Shown here: positions 11,517-40,109 of the stretch, piece after piece
Layout: every line of letters begins with the position of its first letter
Position numbering within the stretch: the stretch's first letter is position 1
Position numbers and translations under genes: made by a program
NCBI RefSeq assembly: GCF_030686945.1
Contig: NW_027122708.1
Span: 5,802,248 to 5,866,247 of the forward strand
DNA length: 64,000 nt
Direction: 5' to 3'
Source of the DNA: Centruroides vittatus
Lineage: Eukaryota
Notes under the pieces: generated by a model
Told to the model about the DNA's origin: nothing
Databases searched by the model: none
Seen by the model: the letters and a program-made list of their open reading frames with translations, nothing else

Positions 11517-11931
11517 GTTTATCCGAATCAATTAAGGACTGGGGTTGTTCAGATAACCGATTTTTTCAGATAACCGATTATGTATAAAAAAATGCATTAA
11601 CCTATCCTAAATGTTGAAATTTTTCTCCATTGCGTGTCGCTTCACGATGAATTTTTCTCCGTTGCATGTCGCTTCGTGTTGAATTATTGTCGATTTTAAG
11701 CCTAACGAAAATTTTTATAATAATAATCAAAGCTATTGTATCGTTAAAAATTATTTCTTTATTGTGTACAAACAAAATAAATATATTGAAAAATATAAAA
11801 ACAAAAAAATTATACTTTAAAAGTTAATCCAGTATCAATAAAGTTCGATTCAGCACGACACAGTCCGACTGGAACTCTTTCGGATAACTGACATTTCGGA
11901 TAACCGATTTTCAGATAACGACGCTCTACTG
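11517..11931. mobile_element. Tc1-like MITE (about 415 bp) nested in hAT-like copy A; TA TSD
   Basis: The left end reads TA|CAGTAGAGCGTCGTTTATCCGAA and the right end TTCGGATAACCGATTTTCAGATAACGACGCTCTACTG|TA. Internal GATAACCGATT subrepeats are present. Confidence 0.6.
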
Positions 11932-12099
11932 TATATTTATTAATTTTAAACCTACTTATTAGTTTTTTAAATTTTTGCTTGTTATGGCATGTCACAAATG
12001 GTCAATAATCAATATGTAGCTTATTTATGGCAGGACTCTCAAAATTCTTTACCAGTAATATCTGGAATAATTGTGCTTATGCTGTCTTAATTTTTAACC

Positions 12100-12354
12100 A
12101 TGCCCGGTAGCTTCAATAACTGCGTAACGCCAAGTTGCGCAAATTGGACAAGGATACAAACGAGTACGAAGTCTGCAAGTATGAAGTTTTTCTTCATAAA
12201 CTTGATTATCAAAGTCAAACGAACTGCCGAATTATTGGGCTATAAGCTTGATGTTTCTATTAAAGCAGCCGAGATAGACAAATCAAGAATACTAGAGAGC
12301 AAAAAAGTACTACAATCTCGAAAACGAACTAGAAATCTTCCAGACTACAGGTGA
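12100..12354 (+). CDS. Conserved 84-aa ORF carried by the hAT-like family (copy A); unknown function
   Basis: The ORF reads MPGSFNNCVTPSCANWTRIQTSTKSASMKFFFINLIIKVKRTAELLGYKLDVSIKAAEIDKSRILESKKVLQSRKRTRNLPDYR. It is open and similar in all three copies (see 39269-39523 and 49164-49445). Confidence 0.3.
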   Translation: MPGSFNNCVTPSCANWTRIQTSTKSASMKFFFINLIIKVKRTAELLGYKLDVSIKAAEIDKSRILESKKVLQSRKRTRNLPDYR

Positions 12355-13384
12355 AAAAACACACAACGTCTGCCTTCTCTTAAATGCATTAAACACAATT
12401 CCACTCACATCAATTGAATTGGAAAGGGCATTCTCGGTACCAAGACTTTTCATTACTAAAATAAGAATCAGATTGAGTAATTGGAGTATTGACCAGCTTT
12501 GCTTTTTAAAAACTTATTATAAAAAGTTTACAATAATATTTTGTATTAAGTTTTATTTGAAACACAAAAATTACCTTCTAATTACAGGTTTGATCTAAGT
12601 TCATTTTTTTTTTAAATTTTCAACTCAATTCAAAGCATTTTATTATTGTTGTATCAAACTTTAATAAATTTTTTCTATTTGTGAAAATTTCTACATAATT
12701 TAAAGGTAATCTTTAATATATATCTTACACAGCATTATTAATATGATTTTGGAGGTTGCAGAACATATTAAATTACTTTAAAAAATAAAAAAATAATTAT
12801 ATCATTTGATTTCAAGATATTTTGTCTATCTTAAAAATAATTAATTCTATCCCAGAATTTCCCGGGATCTCTAGAAACAGTTCTTTTATCCCAGAACAAG
12901 CAAAGGACTGGGAAATGAGAAACCGTAGTCAACAGCATCACAGATCTCGTATTTGTACAGTAACTATTGTAAATATCTCATAACCACGACAAATAAAGTA
13001 TATTATTTGCCTGGATCAGGGTCTCAGTTAATCCTAACCAACGAAAAACAAAGAACGCAGGACACATGGTCGAGGTCGACATGGACATCAGACAATGTAG
13101 GATCAAACCCAGGCCAATACTGCCTAGCATCAAAACATGTCGCGTATGGATTTTAGCCACGCCACTAAAGCAGTGAGCCAGATGTGATGATTAAAAAAGA
13201 AAAAACTTCAAAGACAGAAATAGAGGAGAAATACGTCAGCAGTCAAGTGATCTGCTGACTTCGAGCGAGGTCACGTGACACAATGTGCAAGCGTCCGCCT
13301 CCAATGTACTACTCCATGATATAAAGAAGGTTATGCAATGGTGGCTTCCACCATGCATAATTGAGAAAGAATTAGAGATCTGAA

Positions 13385-15724: not shown

Positions 15725-16033
15725 TTGCACTAGAGCAGGGATGGCGAACCTTTTTGAGTCCGCATGCCATATTGCAAGCATACTTAGCTTTAAAGATGTT
15801 AATGCATGCCAAAGTCTTGGACTTCCAATAATGATATTTAAAGAAATTGAACAATACGCTTTAATTCAAATAAGTGTAAAAATCTGATTGAAAAAAAATG
15901 ATCAGGTGATAAACAGAAAGGATGATTAAAAAGGACAGAAATCATATGATACATTACATGCCAGATGATTTCTCTCACGTGCCACTTTGGGCACGTGTGC
16001 CATAGGTTCGCCACCCCTGCACTAGAGTACCTT
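15725..16033. mobile_element. MITE (about 300 bp) inserted in the LINE remnant; 8-bp direct repeat CACTAGAG at both ends
   Basis: The TIRs are CAGGGATGGCGAACCT and its inverse AGGTTCGCCACCCCTG. Both ends are flanked by GCACTAGAG. The insertion splits the LINE C-terminal ORF. Confidence 0.5.
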
Positions 16034-16328
16034 TTATGTATGTAGTCGAGGGTTCCACTGTCCTCATTACAAATGGGCCCCAGGCCCCTGCCTTGGCCAG
16101 TTGGTCAGTGTGCTCATTGTCCAGGATCATGATTTGGCCTCGGACCCACCTGAGGGAAACATGTCATGCATGCCTCGCCCTCAGTACCCTACCTCTGATC
16201 TTCTGTACCAACTCGTCCCTGTCGTCCCTATCGCTCAAGACCTGAAGCAACAACTGGTTGTCAGAGTAAACCATGACCAGCTCTGGATCCGGATTCACAT
16301 GATCCACTGGGACACCTTCTCGTTCAGT

Positions 16329-16352
16329 CTGACTGACTGACTGACTGACTGA
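16329..16352. repeat. (CTGA)6 microsatellite
   Basis: The sequence is ctgactgactgactgactgactga. Confidence 0.9.
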
Positions 16353-17249
16353 CTGCATGCACTCCATCAGAAAAGATGCAGTATGCAGCACCTACTAAAC
16401 TACCGTCTTTAGAGCCATCAGCGTATATTTCAACACAGATTCCTGTTGGTTCACCAACATCCCAATCTAGTCTGATCCTATGGGCTGGATGGACTCTCAG
16501 TACATCTGTCTGATGTCTAAGTCTGACCGGGTACATCTGATTGCAATGCTTAGCCTCTATACCTTCCATAGTTGTTCCATAGAAGGCTGCCTCTTGGCTG
16601 ACCACCAGAGGCAATGGCAGCAGCTCGGCCAAGACCGGGGCTGCATCCATAGACACAGCTCTGTATGCTTTCGTCACCCACAGGATGGTGGGTCTCTGAA
16701 TCGTAAGCAGCATCCTGCTCATTTTGACATTGGCAGAGTCCTTCCACCAAACACCACAGGCATAGCAGATAACATGTTCTACATTTATCTTGTAAATGGC
16801 TCTTCCCTGCTAAGACCATAATCTTGCTTAGACAGTCTCGATAGTGCTGCTATCGTGAGGTTTGTTCTGTCTCAAACACTCCTCAGATGGGGCATCCAGC
16901 ATAGCATTTGGTCAATGATAACACCGAGATACTTTAACTTGTTCACCCTTCGGATGGGGTTGTCCTGGATTCAGTATATCGGTCGGCATGCCAATACTCC
17001 TGTCTGGGCCACTGTCAGAGCCTCTGATTTCTCAGAGCTGAAGGACCGCTTATGTAGCTCTCCCCAGCAAATGAACTGTTTTATTTCTTCATTGCTGCGA
17101 ATCTCCATATCATGTCTACTAACACCTGCAACTACTAGCAACAAATCATCTGCGTAGGCCTGCAGCTAGACATTGTCTGGAAGGACAAGCCTCAGTGCCA
17201 TGTCTGCAAGAATGTTCTATAGGGGCCCTATGCATGACCCCTGGGGACA

Positions 17250-17316
17250 ACCCCTCTCCGGTTTCCTTACAAACCTGACACTTAGTGTCAGGAAACCGGA
17301 GAGGGGTTGGTACTCA
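17250..17316. repeat. 66-bp near-perfect palindrome
   Basis: The sequence CAACCCCTCTCCGGTTTCC..TGACACTTAGTGTCA..GGAAACCGGAGAGGGGTTG sits at the apparent internal deletion point of the LINE. Confidence 0.7.
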
Positions 17317-18199
17317 ACAGTGTGGTCTCTCAGGAAACTCCTGGTATGAGATATGAGGGTGGTCGGCAGGTTTGCCTTCCACAATTCACCCACTATGGAT
17401 AGCCACCAGACATTGTTGAATTTGTGTATGAAGTAATATCAAACGCTTATCCCTGTTTACTGACCGTAATTGGTCCTTGCCTAAACTCTTTCAAGTTCCT
17501 GCACATAGCACGAGCAGTTGGTACTCAGAAGAGTGACTGGTACCCAACTGCAGGCTGAACCTTTGGTCTGCGTTTGTGCAGTTGATGCACTTAGGCATAG
17601 TGGCCTTACACTCCTTGTAGGAGTGGCCCTCTGCACACTTGCTACAGATCTGAGCTGCCACTGAACAGCTCTTTGCCACGTGATTGAACCCATAACATCT
17701 GTAGCACCAAATGATAGCCAAATGTTCTCTCACCCAGTTTTGAGTCCACCCAACATGTAATTTCCCCTTCTGCAGGAGCTTGTGGTAGACCTTCAGTGAG
17801 GCCTCTAAAACCCAACCGACTAGGCCTCCCTTTTCCTTCATAGAGAAACGAGGTTGGAGCTCACCAGGCCCAACCTCGATGCTATTTTAAAACTTGATGC
17901 TCTCCACGAGGGACTCGCTCTTGATGTTTGGGCTGACATCAGAAAGTATGTCCCTTGGCCAGCGCTTTTGGGGCAGACGGCAACTAACTGCCTCTCTCAA
18001 CGCCAATGGGTCTTCCATCAATTCCTTTATGATCTTGATTGTGTCTTGGTGCTTTGTTATCTCTATCAGGACGCCACCATTGCGCACTCTTCGAACATTT
18101 TTGATCCCATCTCCCAACTTAGCTGGGTTAATTTTCGTTTTTAGCAGTAACCATGTCTGGTCACTGCTCATTATATCTTTCTAAGGGTACACCAGGAGC

Positions 18200-20650
18200 A
18201 TGTGTTCAATGGTTGGTACCCCTCTTCAGTTTAGTAACAGCCTGTGGCCCCTCTTGGTTTTGCTTCAAGGCCAGATGGACTGCGACCATCACAGTTGCTC
18301 CCCACCTTTAAGAACTGCTGATGGAAGCATATTGGGCAGTTGTCGGCCACACACGGCCTTTCTAAGAGGAAGGCTATCTTGACCACCTGGGCACCTAGGA
18401 TTGCAGCAACTTTGCTAAAGAGGATGAAGATGACTGTGCGCATATGGCCTTCTGATACCAGCTGTCAGTCTTGGCCAAGAGCTTCGTCAGCTCATCATGC
18501 ACAACATCCAATGCAGCTCATCGATCCTCAACCATTTCTAGCTTTTCCTGTGTCCCACAGGTGTCGACAAGGGTGTTTTGGCAGCTGCTGCTGTGATAGG
18601 GTCTTTTTTCCTTTTAGACCCACCCTTGTTTTTGGCAGGGGGTTTTCCCCTCTGCCATGGTCACCGCAGCTTTAGCAGATTCCCCCTTAGGCTTGTCACC
18701 TTCAGGTTTCCCCACCTTTGCTTTGGCCACCTCGTGCCGTTTTTTCCTCTGCCTGTCCCTGGCGGTGGCTGGAGCAGCCTTCCAGTCATTGTCCTCAGAT
18801 GTGGCAGTGTTAAAAAACATCCTCTTGATCAGGCTCAACCATACCATTTCGAAGCGGAGCTACTGTCCCTTAGAGGCATTGGCACAGTGAGAGCATTGGT
18901 TTGAAGCCCTTTATCCCTGGGCTCCTCGGGTGAGTCATTAGCGGGCCTACATTTCCGCAGGGTCTGCCTCTCCAGTGGTTTGGTGCTGACTGCACCTCCC
19001 TTATCCTCTCTCTGGGTTGTTGATTAGTCACCATTAGATTAGTACTTGCATCCGCCTGCACATCAATTGCACCGAAGGCAGTACTAATGCATTTGCTTAT
19101 ATCCATAGTTTTTCACCAATAAAAATAAAAAGAGAGTAAGTAGGTTGAGGTGACCATAACTTTTCACAGATGCCCAGAATTCTTTCAGGAATCAGAGTAT
19201 GCATTTAAGAGCCTACCCACAACTGGTTTGGCCCGCTGCTGGGATAGCTACCCATTTAAATGGACACCTACCCAAGGTCACCCCAGTCCAGCTGGTTGCT
19301 TGGCTTGGGCCGCCCCATCATCCCTACTAGGAAACCTTTCCATTTCCAGTTCTCCAGGCCCATATACAGCCATCCAATGCGTCGTCAGGTCTTTAAGCAC
19401 CACTCCCCCAAAGCATAGTGGAAGTTGGCCCTATGCCGAGGAGTGGCTCTGCCAACTGCCTGTCACGGTAGATATCAGTTAGCAGGATCCTGTAATCCAC
19501 AACGGACACTATCCCCCTGGCCACCAGCAAGGCTTTGGCTATGGGAGTACGACTCCTTCCCCACTGGCTTCGGCATGCAGGTTGTGGCCCCCAGGCCAGC
19601 ACTGGGTGTGCGAAGCAGTCTTCCTCCTGGGAAACTGATTTTCCTTTACCAGACAGAAGGAGCTTTACGTGGTCTGCATTACCATGGGCTAAGGCAAATC
19701 GATTGCATTCAACCATCTTTGTGTTCAAAACAACAGCCCCATGCCACTGGGGTGGACAAGTTTGCTTTGTGTGTGTCAGATTCCAGAAAGTAAGGATTGT
19801 CGGATCCATGTCCTCCAGTCTCTGTACAAATGCGGAAATTGAATCCAGAAGTTTTGGCATCCTCTGTGGCTAGTCAGGGACTTCACTCGCCAGCCCAGGG
19901 TACAGTATCCATCTCGCTTCGAGCAGATGCTTTAACCATTGCGATTAGGGGTCTCGGGACCGTTCTGCCAAAGCAGAGGGCCCCTATCAAGTGCCACCAC
20001 ACCGCAGGCCTTTGAGCGCTACACTTCCATTGGCAGAATTACCAATTTTCATCAGACAAGTCCAAATGACTGCAAATGCTCCAATCTACTTATCTCATCC
20101 GAAAACAAGATCTCCCTAGGAATCTAGTTAGTAACGGCTACAACGATCATCAAATTTTGGACTTACTGAGGGACCATTCTGGCCCTCTTATTGTCGGACC
20201 AGAGCAGATAACCGCCTCGCCTCGACCATACCAGTCTCCCTTCTGTTTTGATGTGAGCCTGCATGCCACTATGCCAAATTGCAGCTCTGTTTACCACCCG
20301 CCTGAACAGATAAGTTCCAGTTTAGGGAGATGTTAGAAACCCTGATGGGGGCCGTAGATAAGAACACAGCACATGGGCAACAAACTTCATTAAGGCCTGG
20401 TACACAGACCCAAGGCCGATGATTGTAACACCTCTGAAACCTTAGGCCAGAGTCTAAAGACTCCATCAATGGTCAAGACCAAGGCGGGACCTTCGGATCC
20501 TCTATACCACCGCTAGGCCCCCCGCCACATCCAGGCAGTTCCCTGTCTATGGGGGTCCGTCTGGATATGTCGGGCCCCATCCCTCACAGCCTGGCCACTC
20601 CATTGTGAGCATGGCTGAACCCATAATGGGCTTGCTGAATGAGGCCCTCT
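18200..20650. other. GC-rich block with overlapping ORFs on both strands; probably degenerate retroelement sequence; unclassified
   Basis: Composition shifts to about 55% GC. Many 60-155-aa ORFs overlap in all frames, and none contains a motif I recognise. An A10 run at 20676-20685 could be a retroposon tail. Confidence 0.25.
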
Positions 20651-20901
20651 TAGTGCCCACAGGGTGGAAAGAGTTAAAAAAAAAATAATACATTTTATGT
20701 ATTTAATTTTCTATGATTCTCGAACACAAATCGTGCTACTATTTAAACACTTGGCGTTTTTCCATCTGTATTTAGTTGATACGAGTATTAATACATGTTT
20801 TGGGCGATACCCCTCCTCAGTCAACTAAATATTAAAAAAGGTTATACATAAAATTCTTTTTACAAGACAATATTACACAGAAAAGCTATTTTACAAATAT
20901 A

Positions 20902-21257
20902 CACAGTGGACCTTCGTTATAGTGCTGCTCACTATACCGTGCGCTCAGTTATAGTGCAGACAATATTTGCAACGCAATAAGCTCAAACACGTTTATACAG
21001 GTCCAAGCGGCATTAGTGAGTAGCACATTTTATTGTTACTGCATATTGAGTAATTGTGTATGTATTGAGTTCCTGAATGTATTTTGAATAGTGTTTAATT
21101 ATTGTATGCATGATGAGTAAAAAAAAAGCTTACAGTGTGAAAGAAAAGCTTGACATTATTGCTAAAGTAAAGAGGTAAACCGCATTACACAGAGCGGGGC
21201 AGTATAACACGGGTGTTGTTTCCGGCCCAACATGCGCGTTATAACGGGGGTCCACTG
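20902..21257. mobile_element. Tc1-like MITE (about 355 bp) with TA TSD, present only in the left arm of the foldback
   Basis: The left end reads TA|CACAGTGGACCTTCGTTATAGTG and the right end CGTTATAACGGGGGTCCACTG|TA. The homologous position in the right arm (about 29800) is an uninterrupted ...CAAATATATACTTAAATG. Confidence 0.65.
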
Positions 21258-22215
21258 TACTTAAATGTATAAATTGCTTTGCAAGACTAAAATTGATAAA
21301 GAATCTAATGGTACAAGATATACACATGTATAAGGATGATATGTTTTTTACATCTGTCTAAAGAAATTTTACATACTTGGTTACAAATTTTGGTTAATGT
21401 TACCTTAGGTGCCAAGATGGCGGCGCTTCCAGTCGCCACATTGGATTAGTTGGAAACTGTGCAGTATGTGATACTTTGATAGTAGATCACGTGACGGCAA
21501 GATTCTAAGACCAGATGAAGAGGTTGCCCCCAAACTGTAAACCCCCCTGTGCAAGCATAAAAGTCAAAGGAACCATACCTCTATATGTGACCCTTCGCAA
21601 GATATAGCCCTGCAAAGATGCGCCTACGTCATTTCCAGTCACAACTCCATGCCCAAAAGGAACGCGTCACACGGCCAAATTTTTTTCTTGCTTTTTCCAC
21701 CTCTTAGTGTTTAAAAAAGTGCGCACTTCCCTCTCTTAGCCCCCCAACGCGCGCCTTGCCCTCCTGTACATGCCGCCGCCACTGTCTCCCCCTTGCACGC
21801 ACCCGCAGGCCAAGTCGCCCACCTGCAGTCGTCTGGAGTCACCACCTATTGCCTGTAAAGACAAATATCTATTATTATTTCAGCTCTTACCTGAGCAAAG
21901 ACTCAAACCCCCGTTCTGGCAGGCGCCAGTCCACTTCTCTCTGCACTGGCCCACCAGGTCACTTTGCCCAAAATATTTCAGAACTCATACTTGAGGCATG
22001 CAAGGCCAAGGAACACACTGCATGATGGGCCGTCCAGGCGGTCCCACCTCAGCCAGAGATGCAGTGTGCCTGACCACACGGCCCCACCTCCGCTGCAAAG
22101 TTGAAGCAGGCCGGCTGCAGGTCACATGACCATGGCACGGCCTACTGAAGTTTTATAAGCTTGTAGCTGCCTTGGTGCCGTTGTTCCTAGTTTTACAAGT
22201 GTTTACAGGTATTTG

Positions 22216-22416
22216 CAGTACACTCAAACCTGTTTTTGTGCGGTCTATTTTTGCGTGATTTTTTATTTGTGCGATTTGTTTTGTGTGATTTTTTGTGCGC
22301 GATATATGAATTTCAATCAAATTGGTATACTGCACAAAAATAATTGCACAAAACACATTCCACGTATAAAAAATCGCACAAAAAAAGACCGCACAAAAAC
22401 AGGTTTGAGTGTATGT
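22216..22416. mobile_element. Short MITE (about 200 bp), family with TIR CAGTACACTCAAACCTGTTTTTGTGCGGTC
   Basis: The TIR at 22216-22245 has its inverse GACCGCACAAAAACAGGTTTGAGTGTA at 22389-22416. The interior is a GTGCGATTTTT subrepeat. A family member lies at 30114-30632. Confidence 0.6.
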
Positions 22417-22433
22417 TTACAATTTTTACAGTA

Positions 22434-23057
22434 CAGTAGAGCGCCGTTAACCCACGGTGATTGGGGTCCAAACTGCAGAAAGTGTATGAAAGGCAGTTTT
22501 GAGTCATACTTCCGAAAATTTTCACTTTTAAATTTTACCCCATTTTTGAGGGTCTCAAAAAGTTCACATGTAGTCATTTCGGGGGGCCTGTATCTCGCAA
22601 AGGGTCACTCGTACAGCCATGGTTCAATATTTCAGCTGCAGCTTAGGTGGTCCGCGGCTGAAATATTTTTTGATAATGCATAAATTACAATAAATGAAGT
22701 GATTTACGTTATTCTCAAATTAAAAATCATACACTGTACTTTAAATACAAGTTGATTTTTTGCGGATTTACCGCAGATTAACTTAGTAGCATAGTAAGGT
22801 ATGAATCAATTACAATGGCGGCATCCATAACGCTGACACCAGGCGTGAATAAAACAGATTAGCATTTGAATTTCATTGTAAGTTATTTTATTATTTATTG
22901 ATAAATATAAGACTAATCTTCTGTAAATACCTCTTTGAAGTTATAAGCCAGCATTTAAATATTTAATCCGCGGTAGTGCAAAATTGGGATCCAAGCTTTT
23001 TCTGCGGCTTCAGCCAATTCGCGTGTTACTGACCTGCGGCTTAACGGCGCTCTACTG
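22434..23057. mobile_element. Tc1-like MITE (about 620 bp), TIR CAGTAGAGCGCCGTTAA
   Basis: The left end reads TA|CAGTAGAGCGCCGTTAACCCACGG and the right end GCGGCTTAACGGCGCTCTACTG. A 120-bp internal segment (22505-22630) is repeated directly at 25935-26055. Confidence 0.55.
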
Positions 23058-23126
23058 TCTTTGCAGTATTTTACAATCAGTATTTTACAGTATTTGGAGT
23101 ATTTGTATTTGGCCTGTATTTGTATA

Positions 23127-24777
23127 ATGCCATTCACGTGTGACATGTCAGCGTCTCCCGTTTTGGATCCCGACGACATATTTGAAAACATAACATCGTA
23201 CGCATTTCGTACCTACCTCCCCACCGAAGAGGCCGCCCAGAAATTTTGTCATCTTGTGGGGCTCGTGCCACATCCAGACCTCACCGGTTCCATTCCACTG
23301 TGCCCTCGTTGTGGAGGTAAGCATCGCTTGATTCCTGCATGTACACTACAGTACAGGAACAGCCAATATTCGCGGCGCTACTTTTCTAAGCCGTTTCAAT
23401 GTGTTTGTCATAATTTTGCAGGCCTGATGCAAAAGGAACTGGCTCCACCTGAGAGGTTCGATTTATCTACTGCTGCGAAAAACTGAAAGAAAAGAAAACA
23501 GTTTGACGACGGACAGGCGGCACCTTCCAGAGCGCCGTGTGCACCGGTAGCCTGTCATGTACCCACAATACATTCTTCGACGGGGCGAGACTTTCAGCGC
23601 AAGTATGATATTACAGTCGATCACCGATTTCTGTAATTTGATCGTGCTGATTACGATGACGTATCTATAACAGATGTGTTTTGTTTGTATTTTACAGGTG
23701 CTGACTTTGATATATTCATGGGTCATGCAGCTGCCAGTCACCATTCCCTCGGAGCAATGTCGCGTGGCCCTTGTGACAGCGGTAAATTGGTACAACTTCT
23801 GCTGGGAAGTTGCGGAAGTTTTTGTCTCCCATGCTCAGAACATCCAGCTTGGCGGTGAAGGATTGCACATCGAGGTGACCGTCAACCCACGTTGCTGACT
23901 TTGCCGAAATGTCTGTCTATATTACTTTTTTTTTTTTCTTTCTTTCAGATCGATGAGACCTTCACCCGGAGGCGAAAATACAACCGCGGCTGCGTAGGTG
24001 TAGGCACCCAAATTACAATATTTAGTGCCTACTGTTGGGAAACGTGAGAGCTGATGCACTGGCATGTAAGTAGTAGCGAAACATTACTTCCTTTTATTGT
24101 TTAGTTATCGTGGAAAACACTGTCCGGCAGACATTGGCGCATTTTAGACGTGTTATATTTTCTTGTATTCTTTCAGGTGGACAACAAAAGCAGACGTGTT
24201 CTGTGGAGCCACATGCTCAGATACATCGCTCCAGATTCCATCAGTTTCCAACAGCATGGCCCAGTATCGCGGTTGTGCAGCTTTTTTGGGCTTCTCTGGA
24301 CATAACATCGTCAACCACAGTCGGCGGGGCCCCGGGAGGTAAGAAAGCATGAAACTGTGCTATGTGCTAATTGAAAGAAATGGACGGGCATTATGGAGAA
24401 GCGACATTTATCTGTTTTTTCTTTTTTTTTGTAGATTCGTAGACACAGATGATCCCGAGGCCCATACTCAAAACATTGAGTGCAGAAATAGCTGGCTGAA
24501 GAAGTCCATAAAGTCGCTCCACACGGACAGGAGCCTGCAAAGCTATACCTGCAGTTACGTGTACAGGACGCAGTTCCTGTCCCAGTGGCCAACAACATTG
24601 GCCAAATTCTGGCAGTTTCTACAGGACAGACATCATGGCCGTCTACCTGGGTCCCGGTCGCCAGGGTCTCGAACTCCAGACGATCGGTGCGCCTGTGGAT
24701 CAACATCTGCTGCCAGACATGCCCTATTTCGATGTTCCCGTGCAAGAGGGCGACAAAGAGGAACGGCAGGGGGATGA
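23127..24777 (+). CDS. Merlin/IS1595 (ISXO2-like) transposase gene with spliceosomal introns; at least partly degenerate
   Basis: Recognisable exons lie at 23127-23316 (MPFTCDMSASPVLDPDDIFENITSYAFRTYLPTEEAAQKFCHLVGLVPHPDLTGSIPLCPRCGG; donor G|GTAAGC), 23698-23874 (VLTLIYSWVMQLPVTIPSEQCRVALVTAVNWYNFCWEVAEVFVSHAQNIQLGGEGLHIE; acceptor TTTTACAG, donor GAG|GTGACC), 23949-23993 (IDETFTRRRKYNRGC), about 24172-24336 (..VFCGATCSDTSLQIPSVSNSMAQYRGCAAFLGFSGHNIVNHSRRGPGR; donor AG|GTAAGA), and 24431 to about 24777 (FVDTDDPEAHTQNIECRNSWLKKSIKSLHTDRSL...). The exon-1/exon-2 join and the 23994-24171 interval need frameshifts to stay in frame, so this copy is probably a pseudogene. Confidence 0.55.
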
Positions 24778-25220
24778 CGACCGCCCAGTGAGTAGTGCAG
24801 CCTGTGTGTAGTGCACGCAACCAAATGATACTTCTTGGCGGATGTGAAACCTGGATTATGTGATTTTTCAGACAACATTGAGCGCCACCACCACCACCAC
24901 CTTCGTCATCGACCCCCAGGACCTAGCCGAGGCAGGGACCAGTGGCCTCACCCCGTCCTCACCTACAGAACATCAGGAACAGGCTAGGCGTCGCCAGGTA
25001 GCGAGAGGACGACGTCGTGGGAGAAGCAAGAGGAGACGCTGTTAAAGGTGAGTGCAGAATCTGTTTTCTTGCCCTTTTCCATCGGTAGTTAGAATGTGTT
25101 AGAGATAGCAAAATAGGGTTTAGATGGAAGCAGAATAGAAGACATCTGATGTTCGAAAAGCATTGCTCTTTGCAGCTTTGAGTGTTAACGCAAGGAAAAG
25201 TTTTTATGTCGAGGATTTCG

Positions 25221-25308
25221 TTAAAGGCTTGCCCAATGTGGTTGGTATGGAATGGGTGCCTAATCTCAACATCCATTCTATACTAACGACATTGGGCAAG
25301 CCTTTTAA
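25221..25308. other. 88-nt hairpin of about 33 bp with G:U wobbles and a 14-nt loop (pre-miRNA-like); function unknown
   Basis: The stem TTAAAGGCTTGCCCAATGTGGTTGGTATGGAATGG pairs across the loop GTGCCTAATCTCAA with CATCCATTCTATACTAACGACATTGGGCAAGCCTTTTAA. All mismatches in the inner stem are G:T, meaning G:U pairs in RNA. Confidence 0.3.
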
Positions 25309-25332
25309 CCAACAAGAAGAATGCCCAGCAAG

Positions 25333-25361
25333 CAGTGAAGCTTGTGTGGTGTGTGTGTGTG

Positions 25362-25395
<34 letters not shown>

Positions 25396-25408
25396 ATATA
25401 TATATATA
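25333..25408. repeat. (GT)n followed by (AT)n compound microsatellite
   Basis: The sequence is gtgtggtgtgtgtgtgtgttgtgtgtgtgtgtgtgtgtgtgtgtgtgtggatatatatatatatatag. Confidence 0.9.
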
Positions 25409-27832
25409 TATAGTGCGCGTGACTGAAGGATACTTGTATGCGAAACCTGGATTATATGCGATTGTTCGGACACCATCTTTGTCGTTGTCGAACTCCAGGA
25501 CATAGCCGAGGAGGCGGCGGTGACCGGTGACCTCACCCCGTTCTACACAAGATCGGAAACAGGCTAAACGTTGTCAGGTAGCGAGAGGAGGAGACTCTGT
25601 CGAAGGTGAGTGCAGGATCTGTTTTCTTGGCCTTTTCAGTAGTTAGAGCATGTTAGAGATAGCGCGAAATAGAAGAAGCGCACTCTATTTATGTAGGAGC
25701 AGCGTCGGAGAAAGCGTTGCCTAATTAGTCTTGTTAATCGGGCTTTTCTTTGGCCTTTGCCGACGAGTATCGTTAGAATAGGGCTTGCTGCCTGTTAAAC
25801 GCGCGACAGGCTTAGCGGAGAGAGCGGAGCGAGTTCCGACGGCACTCCCCGGAAGTGGCACCCTCGTGTTTAGGGGGTTTTTAGGAGTCTCTAGTAAGTT
25901 GTAACAGAAAGCGTTCTAAATGCAATTTTTAGTTGTACTTGTGAAAATTTTCACTTTTAAATTTTACCCCATTTTTGAGGGTCTCGAAAAGTTCACATAT
26001 AGTCATTTTGGGGGACCTGTATCTCGCGAAGGCTCGCTCGTACAGCCATGGGTTCATTAGACTTTTTTATTCCTATCAGTATGATCTACAGCTCTGTTAA
26101 GGTCCCAACCGCGTCATTCGGACCTGTAATTGTGCCGAATAGGTTAAGTTAGTACAAGCATCCCCACTGTTTCAGAGACGAGCTGCCATTTCGCTACCAT
26201 AGATAACATTAACCCTAATTTTCAAGCACATTTATAGGCATTATCATTATCATGGTCCTAACCTAATTTGAAATATTCAATTTCCATTAGCTAATAGAAT
26301 TTATGGGCTGGTACAACCTAACCAAAATTCCATCGGAACTTAATTCTACAAAACTCATTGTTGCAGTATTAGCAAAAAACTAAAAAAAAAGTTAAAATTT
26401 AACAACAAATTTTGATGATATTTAATTCAACTTTTCAAATACTATCGTTTAAGAAATATATATTTACCTATTTAACTTCTTGGAAAAAAATATTGTAAAA
26501 AAAGAAATCAAATGTTCCACTACACATACAACGCAACACCGTCAGTGTAGTCTACCTACATGTTAATTTGCATAATTCCACGATAAACAACCATCTAACG
26601 TCATCTAACTCCATACAACGTCAAATCTAACAAATTTGCATATCCGTTCACGATCACATTTTACGTCACGTTCAACGTATTTTCAAATTTCGTCACACTA
26701 TTAACAGATAGCTCCCTCTATCATCAGTACCTCGCGTGACTCTATTTCGAGATTACCAGAAGCGCCGCCATCTTGGCACCTAAGGTAACATTAACCGAAA
26801 TTTTTAATACTGCTTTTTAATCTTAGAAAAATTTTTTAAAAAAAGATTTTTATAAATATTACATGCCTTAATTGAAAAAATACTTGCTTTGTAATCTTTA
26901 TAAAAATCTTTTTTAAAAAACTTTTCTAAATATTACATACCTTAATTTTTTCAATCTTTCTATTTTTGTTAGTGAGATTCCGAATCCGCTTTTTCTAAAA
27001 ACAGGCTACGCCAACTCGAAATTTCCGTACATCTAGTTTGTAATAAGCAACCAATATATAAATACATAAACAGTATACTAGTATCAAATGGACATTACCT
27101 GATGTAAAAGTTTTTTAACTAAAAATTTTTAAGAATTGTTCATTGGATCCTTTTGTGCTTAGATGTGATATAATTTGTTTTTTAGCATTTACAAATAAAA
27201 TAACAAAGTATACTAGTTTGTGTTTAACAAGTAAGTCTTACTTTACTAATTAGACATCGTTACACGACATTAATAAGACTTGCTTCCGCTTTTCGTGGTA
27301 ATGCGGTCTAATACAAATTTGCATATCTTTATGAAATACAGTAATTTGTTTCACAATTTTCGTTTTCACGATCATATGTTTCGATGTTTCACGAAGCATA
27401 GTTAAACCAGTTTTTATTTTAATATTAAAATGTATTTTACAAGACATTTAACCAGTTTTCGTTTATTTTTATGCTCAAATTTTTATTAATATAATTTTTA
27501 GCTTTAAGATTTCAAAACTTTCTTTAAATTTTTTACTATATATGTTTTTTCTTTATGTAAAATTTCAACATTAGACTTATCGATATTACAGTTATTCGTT
27601 AAACAGTGATCGTGGAAAACGGAATTTAATCTATTGTATTTTAGGCCAGCGATGTGTTCTTTTAATCTTATACTTGATTTTCGTCTTGTTTCTCCTATAT
27701 AAGATTAAAAGAACACATCGCTGGCCTAAAATACAATAGATTAAATTCCGTTTTCCACGATCACTGTTTAACGAATAACTGTAATATCGATAAGTCTAAC
27801 GTTGAAATTTTACATAAAGAAAAAAACATATA

Positions 27833-29029
27833 CAGTAAGGCCCCGCTTAACGCTGTTTCGGTATTACGCGGTAGTATTGGAATTCCCCGAGATCGCACGC
27901 AGTGTTGGGATCAAGGCGTAATATCAAATTTTAAAGCTTATTATCTGCGGCGGACATTCCGACAACTGATTGATAAAATAGATGGAGCAGATAAACAATC
28001 CATTAGAGATTTTTGGAAAAGCTATATCATCATGGATGCTGTAGACAACATCAATCTTTCCTGGAATGAGGTGACCGAGAAATGTTTGAAAGGAGTGTGG
28101 AAGAATGTATAGCCGGAGCTAAGCAAGGATGTTGACACAAGAGAATCTATTGTTGATGTCGATGAAATTGTCAAGCTAGCTAATGAAACAGGGTTGGATA
28201 ATATAAATGCGCAGGATATTGAAGAATTATTGCAAGTTACAACTGGAGAAAGTTTTTCCAACGACGCTCTTAAAGAATTAGAACAACAGGTGCATAAAGA
28301 TGACGAAATTAGTGTTTCTAAAGATGAGGAACAAAAGGTTCATCATCTTTAGATGGCTTTCTACGGCTTTTCTAAAAAAAAGTTTAGCTACTATAACGGA
28401 AATAATGGATCAGTTTATACAAAATGATTTCAATTTTGATAGAAGTTCAAAGGCAAGACGAAGTGTCATAGATGCGATGTCTTGTGATCGACAACCGCTT
28501 GCTGAACGAAACAGGAAAAGGCAAACGACGTTAGCAGTAGCGCAGCGAGGGGTGTATCATCCACCGGGCACCATTCTCAGAGGGGCGCCCAAATCGTCTC
28601 CAAGACAAACTATATGTGTTTCTGGAGGGGGAAGAGGGGCGCCAATAAAGTGTCGGGCGCCAGTTATGTTCGCTACGCCACTGGACGTTAGATGACTTCT
28701 TCACAAAGGAACAAAAGATGTCAAATGAGGAAGAACCTTCCTCATCACAAACATAAAAAAAAAAGTTCGAGTAAAGAAGTTATTTTCATGAATGTTTTTT
28801 GAATAAATTTCGATATTAGCAATAAATAAGTCTATAATTAATGTAATAAAAAAGTATTTAACAATAAATGTTACAAAATAAAACAAAAAAAAACTGATAA
28901 ATTTTCTTATTCTCTGTTCTGTTTCACTATCCCCCTTATTTACATGTTAAGATGACCCAGTTTAACGCTGTTTCGTTTAGCGCTCTGTCATCTAGGAACG
29001 CATCCCTCGCGTTAAGCGGGGTCTTACTG
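27833..29029 (+). mobile_element. Tigger/pogo-like internal-deletion derivative (about 1.2 kb) with 22-bp TIRs and TA TSD, inserted at the centre of the foldback
   Basis: The left end reads TA|CAGTAAGGCCCCGCTTAACGCTGTTTCG and the right end CGTTAAGCGGGGTCTTACTG|TA. The host sequence reconstructs to ACATATA|TAGTAAAA, which matches the opposite arm. Internally it encodes a pogo DDE transposase C-terminal region (..SWNEVTEKCLKGVWKNV.PELSKDVD...VDVDEIVKLANETGLDNINAQDIEELLQVTTGESFSNDALKELEQQ...FLKKSLATITEIMDQFIQND..). Confidence 0.7.
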
Positions 29030-30113
29030 TATAGTAAAAAGATTTAAAGAAAGTTTTATTAATATAATTTTTAGCTTTTAAGATTTCAAAACTTTGAGCA
29101 TAAAAATAAACGAAAACTGGTTAAATGTCTTGTAAAATACATTTTAATATTAAAATAAAAACTGGTTTAACTATGCTTCGTGAAACATCGAAACATATGA
29201 TCGTGAAAACGAAAATTGTGAAACAAATTACTGTATTTCATAAAGATATGCAAATTTGTATTAGACCGCATTACCACGAAAAGCGGAAGCAAGTCTTATT
29301 AATGTCGTGTAACGATGTCTAATTTGTAAAGTAAGACTTACTTGTTAAACACAAACTAGTATACTTTGTTATTTTATTTGTAAATGCTAAAAAACATATT
29401 ATATCACATCTAAGCACAAAAGGATCCAATGAACAATTCTTAAAAATTTTTAGTTAAAAAACTTTTACATCAGGTAATGTCCATTTGATACTAGTATACT
29501 GTTTATGTATTTATATATTGGTTGCTTATTACAAACTAGATGTACGGAAATTTCGAGTTGGCGTAGCCTGTTTTTAGAAAAAGCGGATTCGGAATCTCAC
29601 TAACAAAAATAGAAAGATTGAAAAAATTAAGGTATGTAATATTTAGAAAAGTTTTTTAAAAAAGATTTTTATAAGATTAAAAAGCAGTATTAAAAATTTG
29701 TATGTAAAATTTCTTTAGACAGATGTAAAAAACGTATCATCCTTATACATGTGTATACCTTTAAAATTGATAAAGAATCTAATGGTACTACTGTACGTCT
29801 CGTAAAACAATTTATACATTTAAGTATATATTTGTAAAATAGCTTTTCTGTGTAATATTGTCTTGTAAAAAAGAATTTTATGTATAACCTAATTTAATGT
29901 TTAGTTGATTGAGGAGGGGTATCGCCCGAAACGTGTATCAATACTCGTATCAACTAAATAAAGATGATAAAACGCCAAGTGTTTAAATAGTAGCACGATT
30001 TGTGTTCCAGAATCACAGGAAATTAGAAAACACGGTTTCAGAAAATTGGGAAATTTAACTTTAATAGAAAGTTTTTTAAATAAATACCTATGGAACCTAC
30101 CAACTGAATTTTG

Positions 30114-30632
30114 CAGTACAGTCAAACCTGTTTTTATGCGCTCTTTTTATGTGCGATTTTTATTTGTGCGATTTTTTTAATGCGAATTTTTAATTTGTGC
30201 GGTATAGTTGGCGACTAGTCTCGTGCGATTCGTCATGTCTTACGTTGACTTATTATAGCTAAATAAACTTATTATAGCATAAATGCACTTATTATAGTAA
30301 TATTATTGCATGAATATGCGAAAAATGAAATAATTTACTTTTTAAGTCAACAAAACACCACCTGGACAAAAATATGTAAAACAGACGATAGACCAGACGA
30401 TGCAGTCAAGTGCTGACATCTGTTGTCAATAAATTCTATTTCGTACGGTTTTGAGTTATTTTCTATGTGAGACTTTTTTATGCGGTCCCTGTTGACCGCA
30501 TAAAAGAATATTTTTTAAATTGTGTTGCTAAAACTATTATTTACAGCCATTCGTGAAGTTTTGTGAGATTTTTTTTTATGCGTTTTTTTTAATGCGGTCC
30601 CTATCCCCCGCATAAAAACAGGTTTGACTGTA
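30114..30632. mobile_element. MITE (about 520 bp) of the CAGTACAGTCAAACCTGTTTTTATGCG family
   Basis: The left TIR CAGTACAGTCAAACCTGTTTTTATGCGC has its inverse GCGCATAAAAACAGGTTTGACTGTA at 30606-30632. An internal copy of the TIR core lies at 30470-30505, and GTGCGATTTTT subrepeats are present. Confidence 0.6.
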
Positions 30633-32126
30633 TTTATTAATTTTTGCATTGTTTCCCTAAGTTTTCCGAAATCCTCGAATAGCAGAAGCGGTTACTATTC
30701 CAGGGCGATTATTATGATAAGCTTTAACGACGACATGCAGTTACTATTTGAATAAAACCGGTAAATATAATTCGAAGTTTTAATTAGATATGATTAAATA
30801 TCCAATTAATTGTTACCGTTTTCAATTTAATTAATGTAAGGTACTTTCTCTTAGTGAGTCACGAAAATCGATATTAAAAAAACATTAGAATAAAATAGGG
30901 TAGAGGCACTGAAAATGAATTCATAGAACCAATAGGACAATAACAGGAAAAATTTGGGAACCACCGCTCTAAATGGTTGCAGTGTAATCGGTCAGCTCTG
31001 GGATGCAATTAGTGGAAGAAATTTCATGTCATAATGCATACGCTACCATCGACTTTTGCATGGATAAAAAGAAGAATGTGTTTCCAAAATGAAAAACATT
31101 TAAAATGTAAGAAATTAAATAAACTTTTTTATACACCTGTAACTAGTTAATTTAATCAGATTTTGAATCAGCTGATATAAGAATTAAGCCTAGATCAACC
31201 TTACTGCGTCCTATGAAGTCTAAGATCAATGGTTTTCAACTTTTATAAAACTAATAAAAACTAGCAAAAAAACCAGAATGGTAATTACATTTAAACAATT
31301 TTAACAAAAAAAAACTACACAGGAATTCTTTCTTTATCCATCGTCGTTTTCAACTTCAAGCATAAGTCTTGCCGCAGAGTCGACCTTTTATTGTTGTCTA
31401 TTATCAGTCTCAATATTTAAAACATGTAAAAGAAATTTTCCTTTGGCAATGGCTAAAATCGTACATGTGTATATAACAGCATTAATAAAACTAGTAAATT
31501 GTCAGGACAATAATTACATTTTAAATATTCACAAGAAGCTGTAAGACTTTGTTCCTGAGATGCGGATTGAAGAAAGATGAAGAATCTGTTTTTTCTTCTG
31601 TTAATTTCTTGTGAAAATATATATTTTTAAAATTTTTTTGTAAATTTTTTAGTTTTTTCAATTTTGTCAAAGAAATTAGTCGTGAAATTGGCTTATTATG
31701 TTTAAAACATTTAAGACGACAAAATACAGGCGCACAATTGATTTAATTCAAGGTCTATTTTAATTTTTTGAAATCGCATTATGAGAGATCGCGTACAAGA
31801 AGGGATATACCCTGTATACACTAAGGGTGGATCAATAAATATCCAGCCAAAAGCAATAGCATGGCTGATTGCCCCGGATGGTTCTTTATTGATCCACTCT
31901 TATACACAGTATGTACAGTACTTGTATCAGGCTGTTAAAAAAGTGATTTATTTCTCAACGTTAAAAAGTTAATTACAATTTTGTAATTATTTAGATTAAT
32001 TATTAATGTTTCTACAAGTAATTACTTGTGTAATTTGTCAAAGGCATTAACTATGTCATAATTTATGAGATCGATAAAAAAAAATCATCATAGATTTGTT
32101 AAAACTTAGGAAAGATTAATTGTAGC

Positions 32127-35100: not shown

Positions 35101-38100
35101 TTAATTTTTATTCGAATAAAAATGAAATCTGAAAATTTCAAGTTTTAATTCAAACTAAATTAATAGATTCGAAGTCGGCTGCAGTTTTCATGTTTAAGAA
35201 ACTATTATTAATTGTTTTATCACCGGTTCAATTGATACCTCGATTAACTTTAAATCCCAGATTTCACAGAGTCAACCGATGTCCAGCCAATTGCTCGATA
35301 TCCGGTCGTCATCCAGTATGAGGTCGTATTAATCAAGAATGAAATAAGTAGGAAGTCATTCCTCTTATTTTGTCCTTGTAACAGGACGAGTAATGTGGAT
35401 CAGCGAAAATATATCCTCTTATTAACAAGATTAATAAACAGGTAAGGATGCATTCAATAAGTTATATCCCGCATTATAACTCTTATCATCGTTTAAATAA
35501 TTTATCTTCATCCGTTTTAATTAAAACGAATTGTATTATAAAGGGAAATGAATGCAAAGTATTAATCATACAACTGTTGGAATGAACCGACTAATTTATT
35601 TTACCATACAGTTAAATCTTACGGAATTAGATTTATGTATATTTAATTCCAATAGAATTATGAATTCAAATAAATTTTAAAGTTCTATTTTATATGATAT
35701 ATTATTAGTGAACATAAAATTCTTTAGTAAAATTTTAGATAATAATAATTTAAAATTATGATATTTTGGACTTTTATAATTATAAAAACTGGAAAAAAAA
35801 TTAGTAGTACTTAAAACAAATGAAAAGAAAATAATAGCAATGTTTTATTTACTTAATATTTTATATCTACTATCAGATAGGCTTGACCAGTCTTGTTTAT
35901 TTAAAAATGATGATAATTAACAATTTATTAAGCCTATTTTATTTTTATCGCTGCTTTCATAATAAAAATCTAATGGGGTATTTAAGTTACATATAAAAAA
36001 TGTATAGAAAATGCAAGTTTTAATCGATTTATAGTATAAATATCTTTATATTAAGATTATTACCATGCAAATCTTAATAAAGATAATCTTTATATTAAGA
36101 TATTTATACTGTATATCCATTAAAATATTTATCTTAAATGTATATAAATGATATATAAATAAAATTAAAAAATAATATATCCTTAATAAATTAAATGAAT
36201 GATGTATTTATAATTTAAATTTATTTTACTGTTTTTAAATACTATAAATTTAATTATAAAGAGATATGACAACACTTTAAAATAATGCAAATGAAAATAG
36301 TATGAGCAATAAATGTGGATATTTATATTTGCCTCAAATATAATTACTTAATTATATTCTGTAATATATAGATAACATAAGCAATGATAGGAAATATATT
36401 GAGGTAATTATAAAGTAGCTTACTTTTGTATTTGCAAATTTGATGCGAGATAATCTACATTACTTTCATCTTTTGTTGAAGGACGAGGCTTAGGCATTGA
36501 CTTCAAAGAATATTTTTTATCAATATTTTCTACATAATTTAACTGGCTCCCATTTCCTCTTTCTGCAATAAATCTACAAAAATATAATAATATATTTATT
36601 TGTATTATAAATTTAAAATTATTTAATATAATCAAAATAAATGTTATATATTTTGCTATTGTTAATTTTTTTCCCTTTTATCAATATAATATATTTACAT
36701 GAGATATTCTCATATAAGACAAAGAATAATAAGAAAATTCAATAACTTGAGAGAGAAACTTCAATTTTAGATAAGAACTTGACATTTGCAAAATAAAAGA
36801 TAAAAATTTGTAATAAAAATTGAAATCATCATCCTTTTCAAATCCTGAAATTATTTAGTGTAACAAAAAAGTTGATTAATATAAATAAAATCATAGGGGA
36901 AAAAATCACCATATACTACTGATTTTTAAATTTAGTAGAATTCAAATGTTTGTAGTTTTTCTTTAATTTTAATCTTTAAGCATAAAAATGCTTAAACTTA
37001 TTCAACTTATTAATAAGAATATAATTTTAAAATTAGAAATGATTTATTTAAGTTTCATGTTTAATTACAGTAAGACCTGTGTAAACCAGACTCACACGGT
37101 ATCCAATATATTTTCCGGTGTGGCAGGTTTCTGTTTTGAACAGTTTTACTGTAGTAAATATTTGTACTTTTGTAATTTTATTTTGTTTACTTCCAAAAAA
37201 ATCCAATTAAACGATTTCCAAATTTCTTTTGTAACATACTTAATAATTAAAATAAAACATTGGCCGATGGTATTTACATAAAAGTATAAAAATATGTATT
37301 TAACATTATTAAGTATAAAAATTTAAGCATTTATGGTTACACTTATATATTCACCAATAATATTTAACTTTACTTCGAAAACTATGCTAAATATTAACTA
37401 ATCTCAGATTAAAAAGTTTCTGGTCCCACTTGAAATCGAAATGTCTATTTTGATTTTAATTTCTTTCTTGGGATATGTGTAAGTCGCGGTAATCGTGACT
37501 TGGCGTGAAATTTCTAATGAAACATGAATTTTGAGAATTTATCATTTTGCAAGAAATAGTGCGAATTTTAGAATTATCATCTTTTTCGACTGGATTTTTA
37601 TTTACACGGATTCGAAAAGGTCCAATCTACATTTTGTACGTTTACATTTAAAATATCCGTCGTAACACTACGGCGCTATAAAACGATCAATCGAATTCGA
37701 TTGGAATCTGAGCAAAACTATAAAAATTATAAATAAAACCGAGGAAAATTTCTCATCACCAGGGAAGAAAGGGAAGTATTACGCATTCCGTTTCATTGAA
37801 TAAATATTGTTTGTTGGTTTTAACCATTTTGTGTATATGAAAGGAAGCTAGAACAAAACAATTTAAAATTAATAATAACGGACAGTAGTCTTAGTTAATA
37901 ACATTTTTAGTTAGTGCTCGTATCGCATAACATCTAAGAAGCACGAAGCAAAAAATATTACTACTTAGAATAAAGTAAAAAAATTTCCACGCTAATAATG
38001 GGAACATGTTCTGCTTTACATGCAATGTTGTTGTTAATCACATCAGGAAAGCTAGTTACAAAAACATTTAAAGTCTGAGAAACCGCGAAGAATAGAAGAA

Positions 38101-40097: not shown

Positions 40098-40109
40098 GTG
40101 GGGATTAAT

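Follow-up and report, generated by a model that had tools for sequence, protein, structure and literature searches.

We found that a locus of the scorpion Centruroides vittatus contains a palindrome whose two arms, 20704-27672 and 27698-30025, are reverse complements of each other over ~1.19 kb when three insertions are excised from the alignment. Each of these insertions, a MITE, a Merlin element and a Tigger-like element, is present in a single arm, is bounded by a target-site duplication of its own and has an intact empty site opposite it in the other arm (Table 1). Taken together, these observations support a long inverted repeat, capable of forming a hairpin, that has recorded independent insertions. 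Positions are those of the window, i.e. the whole 64-kb stretch of DNA that was analysed.

Structure and limits of the palindrome

The preliminary description of this locus had proposed that the arms are reverse-complementary over about 1.2 kb after excision of the insertions, around a centre at about 27685 with a 23-nt loop. The alignment, which runs from end to end of the arms, bears this out, and the length of the non-palindromic central spacer is given here as 23-25 nt because a TA is ambiguous. The uninterrupted hairpin at the centre folds at -146 kcal/mol, with a z of -34 that sets the palindrome apart from chance. The outer limits had been placed at 20690 and 30062 and are narrower: homology between the arms stops at ~20698-20704 and 30025-30032, and we found no extension of the palindrome past 20698 or 30032, the flanking GC-rich block and the MITE at 30118-30631 included. 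The locus is AT-rich (24-29% GC). An Rfam search of the window gave no match, and exact-protein look-ups of the window's open reading frames (ORFs) matched no record. When the arm ORFs were compared with 5.8 billion predicted proteins, 4279 candidates shared words with them and none was significant; having no homologues, the arms are taken to be non-coding.

Table 1. Features of the palindrome and of the elements inserted in it.
Feature	Position	Strand	Remarks
Inverted-repeat block	26898-27484 vs 29088-29674		587 nt, 99%
Inverted-repeat block	27545-27672 vs 27698-27825		128 nt, 99%
Inverted-repeat block	20704-20861 vs 29868-30025		92%
Inverted-repeat block	21315-21376 vs 29700-29761		97%
Left arm, outermost segment	20704-20901		Pairs with 29827-30025
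354-bp non-coding MITE, Tc1/mariner type	20904-21257		Left arm only; TIRs, TA duplication, CAGT ends
Left arm, middle segment	21260-21383		Holds 27-nt inverted block and extra 8 nt
Merlin-superfamily DNA transposon, 5405 bp	21392-26796	+	Left arm; TIRs, 8-bp duplication, transposase
191-bp palindromic MITE nested in Merlin	22221-22411		95-nt arms, 82% complementary, 5-nt loop, TA/TA flanks
624-bp MITE nested in Merlin	22434-23057		CAGTAGAGCGCCG termini, 21-nt TIRs 95%, flanks TA / TC
Left arm, inner segment	26805-27672		Holds 75-nt stretch absent from right arm and second inverted block
Asymmetric central spacer (loop)	27673-27697		CTTGATTTTCGTCTTGTTTCTCC(TA), centre 27685
Right arm, innermost segment	27698-27832		99% complementary to 27545-27672
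Tigger/pogo-type element, 1197 bp, internal-deletion derivative	27833-29029	+	Right arm only
149-bp MITE nested in Tigger, putatively hAT-like	28535-28683		8-bp duplication, short TIRs
Right arm, remainder	29032-30025		Counterparts of both local inversions and extra TACTGTAC

Insertions and their empty sites

Nested insertions, such as the retrotransposon nests between maize genes, serve as a chronology in which the interrupting element is the younger one, and empty sites permit exact reconstruction. Unlike in the maize nests, the empty site is supplied here by the opposite arm of the palindrome and not by another genome or copy, and the insertions can be reconstructed exactly because that arm acts as a built-in control. 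The earlier claims that the insertions are one-armed, with duplications typical of their families (TA, 8 bp and TA) and preserved empty sites, all held, the MITE and Merlin duplications having one substitution each. The count of three falls short of the events at the locus: the transposon copies have themselves received at least three more MITEs, two in Merlin and one in Tigger.

The MITE in the left arm begins with CAGTGGACC and ends with GGTCCACTG. It is flanked by CA (20902-20903) and TA (21258-21259), and the right-arm empty site (...AAATATATACTTAAATG) reads TA, which indicates the single substitution. This element had been described as a 356-bp Tc1-like MITE; its TA duplication and CAGT ends do place it in the Tc1/mariner superfamily, but "Tc1-like" is a call at that level only and the length is 354 bp. 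A hint of pogo affinity, from the comparison of a 22-aa ORF with CENP-B_N, was not significant (p ~0.1).

It has been reported that Merlin transposons encode a DDE_Tnp_IS1595 transposase and have TIRs that begin with 5'-GG and measure 24-462 bp, and target-site duplications of 8-9 bp (PMC8101967). The TIRs of the large left-arm insertion begin with GG (GGTTAATGTTACC...) and are perfect over 38/38 nt (21392-21429, 26759-26796), with 47/49 matches when extended. The target-site duplication, CAAATTTT (21384-21391) and GAAATTTT (26797-26804), matches at 7/8 positions, and the right-arm empty site is CAAATTTT. A tblastn map located a decayed transposase gene at ~23127-24985, with stop codons and intron-like gaps. 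None of the raw frames of the Merlin interior gave a Pfam match, and the cut-off was reached only by the exon-stitched translation (DDE_Tnp_IS1595, PF12762; 27.9 bits, cut-off 27, E = 2.7e-6). The stitched ORF matched Centruroides PF12762 proteins with E = 7e-118, and its closest homologues all carry this domain. The 5.4-kb insert thus resembles the Merlin superfamily, which is related to IS1595/IS1016, in domain, GG-ended TIRs and 8-bp duplication, and its earlier identification as a 5.4 kb Merlin element stands on every defining feature tested. Unlike an intact Merlin, the present copy is dead, with stop codons, frameshifts and two nested MITEs. It also contains internal repeats with a period of ~582 bp. 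Of its nested MITEs, the 191-bp one and the MITE at 30118-30631 are members of one family, and the 624-bp one has a sibling copy at 11505-11931.

The right-arm insertion has 25-nt TIRs (CAGTAAGGCCCCGCTTAACGC; 24/25, 96%) with CAGT-type termini and is flanked by TA on both sides (27831-27832, 29030-29031), the left arm preserving the empty site. Pfam detected DDE_1 (PF03184; E = 8e-9, 35.7 bits, cut-off 22), of which only the C-terminal part is present, and the best named matches were annotated as "tigger transposable element-derived protein 1-like". Furthermore, the copy is 86-91% identical in DNA to a full-length element (L005) with CENP-B_N, HTH_Tnp_Tc5 and DDE_1 domains; the 1.2 kb Tigger-like element proposed earlier is thus substantiated by both its domain and its parent. 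The TA duplication, the CAGT termini, DDE_1 and the two additional domains of the parent are features of the Tigger/pogo group of the Tc1/mariner superfamily. Unlike the parent, our copy lacks ~1.2 kb (positions 122-1307 of L005), a stretch that includes the DNA-binding domains and the beginning of DDE_1; it also has a nested 149-bp MITE. Because CENP-B_N and HTH_Tnp_Tc5 are deleted here and present in L005, we regard the copy as a non-autonomous derivative. The nested MITE starts with CAGTAGCG, ends with CGCCACTG, has TIRs matching at 11/13 positions and is bounded by a perfect 8-bp duplication, GACGTTAG (28527-28534, 28684-28691); its empty site is preserved in L005. The length of this duplication is the one feature that suggests a hAT-like element.

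As a separate observation, copies of the Tigger family from the scorpion and from a bee, Osmia, share ~88% DNA identity. Horizontal transfer of transposons is well known in arthropods, and from this similarity a transfer of the family between scorpion and bee is possible. This identity may prove more useful than the palindrome itself.

Differences between the arms

Identity between the arms is uneven, falling from ~99.6-99.7% in the inner part to ~92.5-93% in the outer part. Two mismatches were found over 579 nt of the inner segment (26898-27476 vs 29096-29674), and another stretch of it, 27522-27672, differs from the right arm by one mismatch and two one-nt indels. The outermost segment, 20704-20901, is 92.5% identical to its counterpart, with 13 mismatches and 2 gap columns over 199 nt. 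The contrast is significant overall (16 mismatches in 228 outer nt vs 3 in 730 inner nt; Fisher p = 3e-8), and divergence steps outward from ~0.4% (inner) through ~2% (middle) to ~7% (outer), although neither step is significant singly (middle vs inner, p = 0.10; outer vs middle, p = 0.11).

It has been previously reported that the arms of palindromes undergo conversion by one another (PMC8600007), and the gradient fits arm-to-arm copying blocked by insertions. With an arm identity of >99% close to its centre, which is consistent with intrachromosomal conversion, the palindrome resembles the large sex-chromosome palindromes whose arms gene conversion maintains (PMC8600007; bioRxiv 10.1101/800185). 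Those palindromes differ in being 10 kb to megabases long, gene-bearing and homogenised over the whole arm, whereas the one described here is 1.2 kb and non-coding, and its identity decays outward at points that coincide with heterologies. If conversion were indeed the cause, the stepwise climb in divergence would date the insertions and gauge how much uninterrupted homology conversion needs, a proposal that we make tentatively. Alternatively, a two-step origin of the palindrome may account for the gradient, the inner 0.8 kb having been re-copied recently with no continuing conversion.

The arms also differ by small rearrangements. A 27-bp segment had been described as locally inverted between the arms, and this was confirmed by a direct match of 27/27 between 21288-21314 and 29762-29788. 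We identified a second local inversion of ~40-46 nt, where 27477-27521 matches 29050-29095 in direct orientation (96%). The left arm alone contains 75 nt at 26823-26897 and 8 nt (CTTGGTTA) at 21376-21383, and the right arm has 8 additional nt (TACTGTAC) at 29789-29796. Short inversions of this kind have been documented as products of template switching (PMC5453318), and the two in-place inversions and three indels would be ordinary scars of template switching or slippage. Tandem Repeats Finder reported one 74-nt unit in 1.9 copies, restricted to the left arm, and a weak 13-nt AT-rich periodicity. The right arm has a single repeat unit, chimeric between left copies 1 and 2. Arrays of ~40-bp subrepeats, which the preliminary description had attributed to the arms, were not found in them by this program.

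Origin and significance of the palindrome

We consider it somewhat probable that the locus is an old, genuine palindrome in non-coding scorpion DNA, produced by local inverted duplication, with arms homogenised by conversion, in which transposons landed later. The duplication would most likely have involved fold-back priming or a template switch during replication, the short spacer being what remains of the loop. Inverted duplications formed by fold-back, with a spacer and short inverted homology, are documented (PMC3907307), and the palindrome resembles fold-back and template-switch duplications in having inverted copies on either side of a short, single-copy spacer, the equivalent of the loop in the fold-back (PMC3907307; PMC10766183). 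Human cases differ in being kilobases to megabases long and linked to terminal deletions, whereas the palindrome is 1.2 kb, interstitial and evolutionarily old, with a junction signature that is no longer readable.

From the relative ages of the insertions, we infer the order MITE, Merlin, Tigger. The MITE and Merlin duplications have one substitution each and the ORF of Merlin has decayed; the Tigger duplication has remained intact and lies in the 99.6% zone. The TA-targeting MITE would thus have landed first, followed by the Merlin element, itself carrying two MITEs, and finally by the deleted Tigger element with its small MITE. Gene conversion would have kept the arms alike where homology was continuous, and divergence would climb stepwise outward because each interruption severed the outer homology from conversion.

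An FB-like foldback element had been suggested initially, and a palindrome that is one copy of a scorpion family of foldback or long-TIR non-autonomous transposons, with 1.2-kb TIRs, a tiny middle and a later role as landing pad, is a reading that we consider unlikely. Foldback elements are defined by long arms and a minimal loop (PMC4079207), and arms of ~1.19 kb around a middle of 23-25 nt have this overall architecture. As in Drosophila FB, Galileo and Tetris, the unit consists almost wholly of inverted arms, with a very short middle and no coding capacity (PMC4079207). Small palindromic MITEs also occur in the same region (e.g. 22221-22411 and 1389-1680), which shows that this genome gives rise to elements of the foldback type. 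However, the TIRs of FB, Galileo and Tetris contain tandem-repeat arrays, and these elements have target-site duplications of 7-10 bp and occur in multiple copies per genome; we looked for arrays and a duplication here and both are absent. Direct repeats of 3-10 bp were sought at all boundary offsets in 20670-20711 and 30018-30065, a range that covers target-site duplications of 4-10 bp, and matched termini showed none. An AATT match at the outer ends was rejected as a duplication, as it belongs to the palindrome itself. No superfamily motif could be recognised at the arm termini, and the outward fall in identity is unexpected for freshly transposed TIRs.

Other copies of the arms, of which a foldback family would have several dispersed in the genome, were also sought. 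Neither the 64-kb window nor the predicted proteins yielded a second copy, and a comparison of the arm, MITE and Tigger sequences with 89 kb from four Merlin loci of C. sculpturatus gave no match other than Merlin. An exact-pattern scan of JGI metagenome contigs with an arm 24-mer gave no match; an 18-mer gave 11, which had no similarity past the word and were attributed to chance. The scorpion DNA searched amounts to just 64 kb and 89 kb of a host genome close to a gigabase in size, which gave the sample very low power. With neither subrepeat arrays, nor an outer duplication, nor another arm copy in the sampled DNA, the FB-like reading is unsupported.

Repeats and nested insertions fill the window and the spacer is short and non-palindromic, as might be expected if two copies of a ~1.2-kb repeat had inserted independently in head-to-head orientation with 25 nt between them, or if one had inserted beside the other; this is improbable, since the sampled DNA holds no third copy, neither arm is visibly flanked by duplications, and an inner identity of 99.6% beside an outer 93% would still need conversion between the copies. 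An assembly artefact, i.e. a chimeric inverted join such as a long read with a missed adapter, is very improbable: the join is known from assembled sequence, the inner 0.8 kb is near-identical and two of its five differences are one-nt homopolymer indels that could be sequencing errors, but an artefact would yield near-identical arms, whereas these arms are distinguished by three transposons, each with its duplication and the corresponding empty site, by two inversions, by one indel of 75 nt and two of 8 nt, and by ~7% outer substitutions, with one insertion and one inversion inside the near-identical zone and no N gaps in the region.

The old inverted duplication that we favour has no indicated function and appears to be a passive record of transposition. 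Nothing in the sampled DNA pointed to mobility of the palindrome. A putative hairpin RNA may be produced from the locus. The record is tidy but ordinary, and its main value lies in annotation and teaching: for a little-studied arachnid genome, it cleanly illustrates the target-site duplications of Merlin, Tigger and MITE families and also gives the relative order of events. In addition, the outward decay of identity offers a small, testable hint as to how heterologies limit conversion in short palindromes.

Structure and origin of the palindrome

We recovered the inverted blocks of the preliminary description with both a repeat finder and self-BLAST (20000-30800). When the three insertions were cut out (20902-21258, 21392-26804 and 27833-29031) and the left arm was aligned with the reverse complement of the right, the arms formed a single collinear alignment of ~1.19 kb, centred at 27685 on a spacer of 23-25 nt, CTTGATTTTCGTCTTGTTTCTCC(TA). 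Homology ends at about 20698-20704 on the left and 30025-30032 on the right, slightly inside the limits first proposed, and none resumes beyond the flanking repeats. The central part, still uninterrupted, has a folding energy of -146 kcal/mol as single-stranded DNA (z = -34 vs shuffles). All three insertion junctions and their empty sites in the opposite arm were as claimed, and so was a 27-nt local inversion between the arms. The palindrome is real and its first reading was mostly correct; the ~40-bp subrepeats described in the arms are not there.

Features of the palindrome and the surrounding window
Feature	Position	Length	Detail
Inverted block	26898-27484 vs 29088-29674	587 nt	99% identity
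Inverted block	27545-27672 vs 27698-27825	128 nt	99% identity
Inverted block	20704-20861 vs 29868-30025	158 nt	92% identity
Inverted block	21315-21376 vs 29700-29761	62 nt	97% identity
Outermost arm segment		228 nt	16 mismatches, 7% divergence
Arm segment between MITE/inversion and Merlin site		92 nt	2 mismatches, 2% divergence
Inner arm segment		730 nt	3 mismatches, 0.4% divergence
Left-arm MITE	20904-21257
Merlin element	21392-26796
Merlin transposase gene	23127-24985
Palindromic MITE in Merlin	22221-22411	191 bp	flanks TA/TA
Second MITE in Merlin	22434-23057	624 bp	flanks TA/TC; sibling 11505-11931
Merlin 3' internal repeats	24842-26807		period ~582 bp
Internal copy of Merlin right TIR	26176-26228		degenerate
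(TG)27 microsatellite	25343-25394
Tigger-like element	27833-29029		TA/TA duplication
MITE in Tigger copy	28535-28683	149 bp	8-bp duplication
MITE outside right arm	30118-30631
First inversion	21288-21314 vs 29762-29788	27 nt	direct orientation
Second inversion	27477-27521 vs 29050-29095	~40-46 nt	direct orientation, 96%
Left-arm extra segment	26823-26897	75 nt
Left-arm extra CTTGGTTA	21376-21383	8 nt
Right-arm extra TACTGTAC	29789-29796	8 nt
GC-rich block	~16000-20673		47-56% GC
Kinase ORF	9640-10071 (-)		Pkinase, E = 2e-20
Transposase ORF	40165-40785 (-)		DDE_3, E = 4e-9
1-kb repeat	11934-12929, 39101-40099, 48929-49913		three direct copies, 83-88%
Further palindromes and repeat families	1389-1680; 36018-36125; 50617-51225 vs 52599-53210

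With slightly better than an even chance, we favour a local inverted duplication, which would have arisen through fold-back or template switching and left a spacer derived from the loop; fold-back inverted duplication with a loop-derived spacer has been documented as a mechanism (PMC3907307). That the palindrome is a foldback or long-TIR transposon is possible but unlikely: its arms are long, as such elements require, but they hold no subrepeat arrays and no flanking duplication borders the outer ends, which leaves the FB-like interpretation first put forward unsupported. A search of very low power, covering the 64-kb window, 89 kb of C. sculpturatus loci, a protein database and the JGI metagenomes, found no further arm copies, and we consider it improbable that the arms are two head-to-head copies of a repeat. 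Arm ORFs had no coding homologues in the protein database, and the arms had no Rfam match. An assembly artefact is very improbable indeed: the insertions that set the arms apart have duplications and are matched by empty sites, the arms differ further by inversions and indels and, in their outer part, by 7% substitutions, and the region is free of N gaps.

As a kind of feature, palindromes of repeat-rich DNA that hold nested class II insertions are already known. The GC-rich block abuts the left arm (GC in the arms is ~27%), and its end is 82% identical to positions 9535-9618 of L004, another sampled locus, so that the block is a repeat family; its ORFs gave no Pfam match. Elsewhere in the window, a CDK-like protein kinase fragment lies among inverted repeats, apparently a piece of a gene that was captured or retro-copied, and a second ORF is a Tc1-type transposase remnant. 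Other repeats of the window include a 303-nt self-complementary element and a 613-nt inverted pair (96%).

Differences between the arms

Divergence between the arms increases outwards (outer vs inner, p = 3e-8), a gradient with which uniform independent decay of the arms is incompatible. Its simplest reading would be that arm-to-arm copying went on only where homology stayed unbroken. If so, the left-arm MITE and Merlin insertions are old, and the Tigger insertion would be recent, because its duplication is intact and it sits inside the 99.6% zone, neither copied nor erased. The pattern would look no different had the inner 0.8 kb been re-copied just once, recently.

We also found a second local inversion, bounded by short inverted ends (TTTTT/GTTTT...AAAAC). 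The site of the Tigger insertion is ~17 nt away from it, and the 27-nt inversion lies ~29 nt from the left-arm MITE; this proximity may be coincidence, the chance probability being roughly 0.06 by a rough estimate, not a computed one. The single unit of the right arm that corresponds to the 75-nt difference is a chimera in a three-way alignment, its first 17 aligned nt being identical to left copy 1 and the remainder to left copy 2. From the alignment, we read the difference as a probable slippage deletion between two old tandem units, 84% alike. The extra CTTGGTTA abuts the Merlin duplication and resembles the Merlin terminus GGTTA. The extra TACTGTAC adjoins the 27-nt inversion and includes TACTGTA, the canonical footprint of Tc1/mariner excision (TA+CTG+TA), though a GTAC...GTAC duplication at a junction would account for the stretch equally well.

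The inserted elements

The left-arm MITE is non-coding and of Tc1/mariner type, with ends CAGTGGACC... and ...GGTCCACTG. It is flanked by CA and TA and its empty site is a single TA, so one copy of the duplication has mutated. It may be Tc1-like or pogo-like: its 22-aa ORF aligns with the start of a CENP-B_N domain, but not significantly (p ~0.1).

The Merlin and Tigger identifications were both right. For Merlin, the TIRs (38 nt, perfect, starting with GG), the duplication (CAAATTTT and GAAATTTT, the empty site being CAAATTTT) and the transposase domain fit the defining features listed in PMC8101967. Its transposase gene has in-frame stops and intron-like gaps (tblastn with the best match); the exon-stitched translation matches Centruroides proteins only, every one with PF12762 (E = 7e-118), and itself passes the Pfam cut-off for DDE_Tnp_IS1595. 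The source of the DNA is accordingly a Centruroides-like scorpion. Nesting goes further than first described, here and in the Tigger copy. Both MITEs nested in the Merlin copy, the smaller a near-perfect palindrome, sit in its 5' part; the motif TTTGCAGTA recurs beside several such insertions. In the 3' part are the microsatellite and a set of diverged internal repeats, which include the degenerate TIR copy. A further MITE lies beyond the right arm, at a distance of ~90 nt; its 24-nt TIRs are perfect (TACAGTCAAACCTG...), and it belongs to one family with the palindromic MITE of the Merlin copy.

The Tigger-like element, with 25-nt TIRs, retains the C-terminal part of DDE_1 (E = 8e-9) and is 86-91% identical in DNA, TIRs and non-coding parts included, to a 2.2-kb element of the ENA metagenome contig L005, which encodes CENP-B_N, HTH_Tnp_Tc5 and DDE_1. 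The window copy is without ~1.2 kb of this parent-type element. The MITE within it has a perfect duplication (GACGTTAG), and its empty site is kept in the L005 relative. The window element also shares 83-88% identity with a copy from the bee Osmia bicornis and ~86% with human-gut (Hadza) metagenome contigs; annotated Centruroides Tigger proteins reach only 65-69%, at the protein level. On these sequence comparisons, the Tigger family is a candidate for horizontal transposon transfer between distant arthropods.
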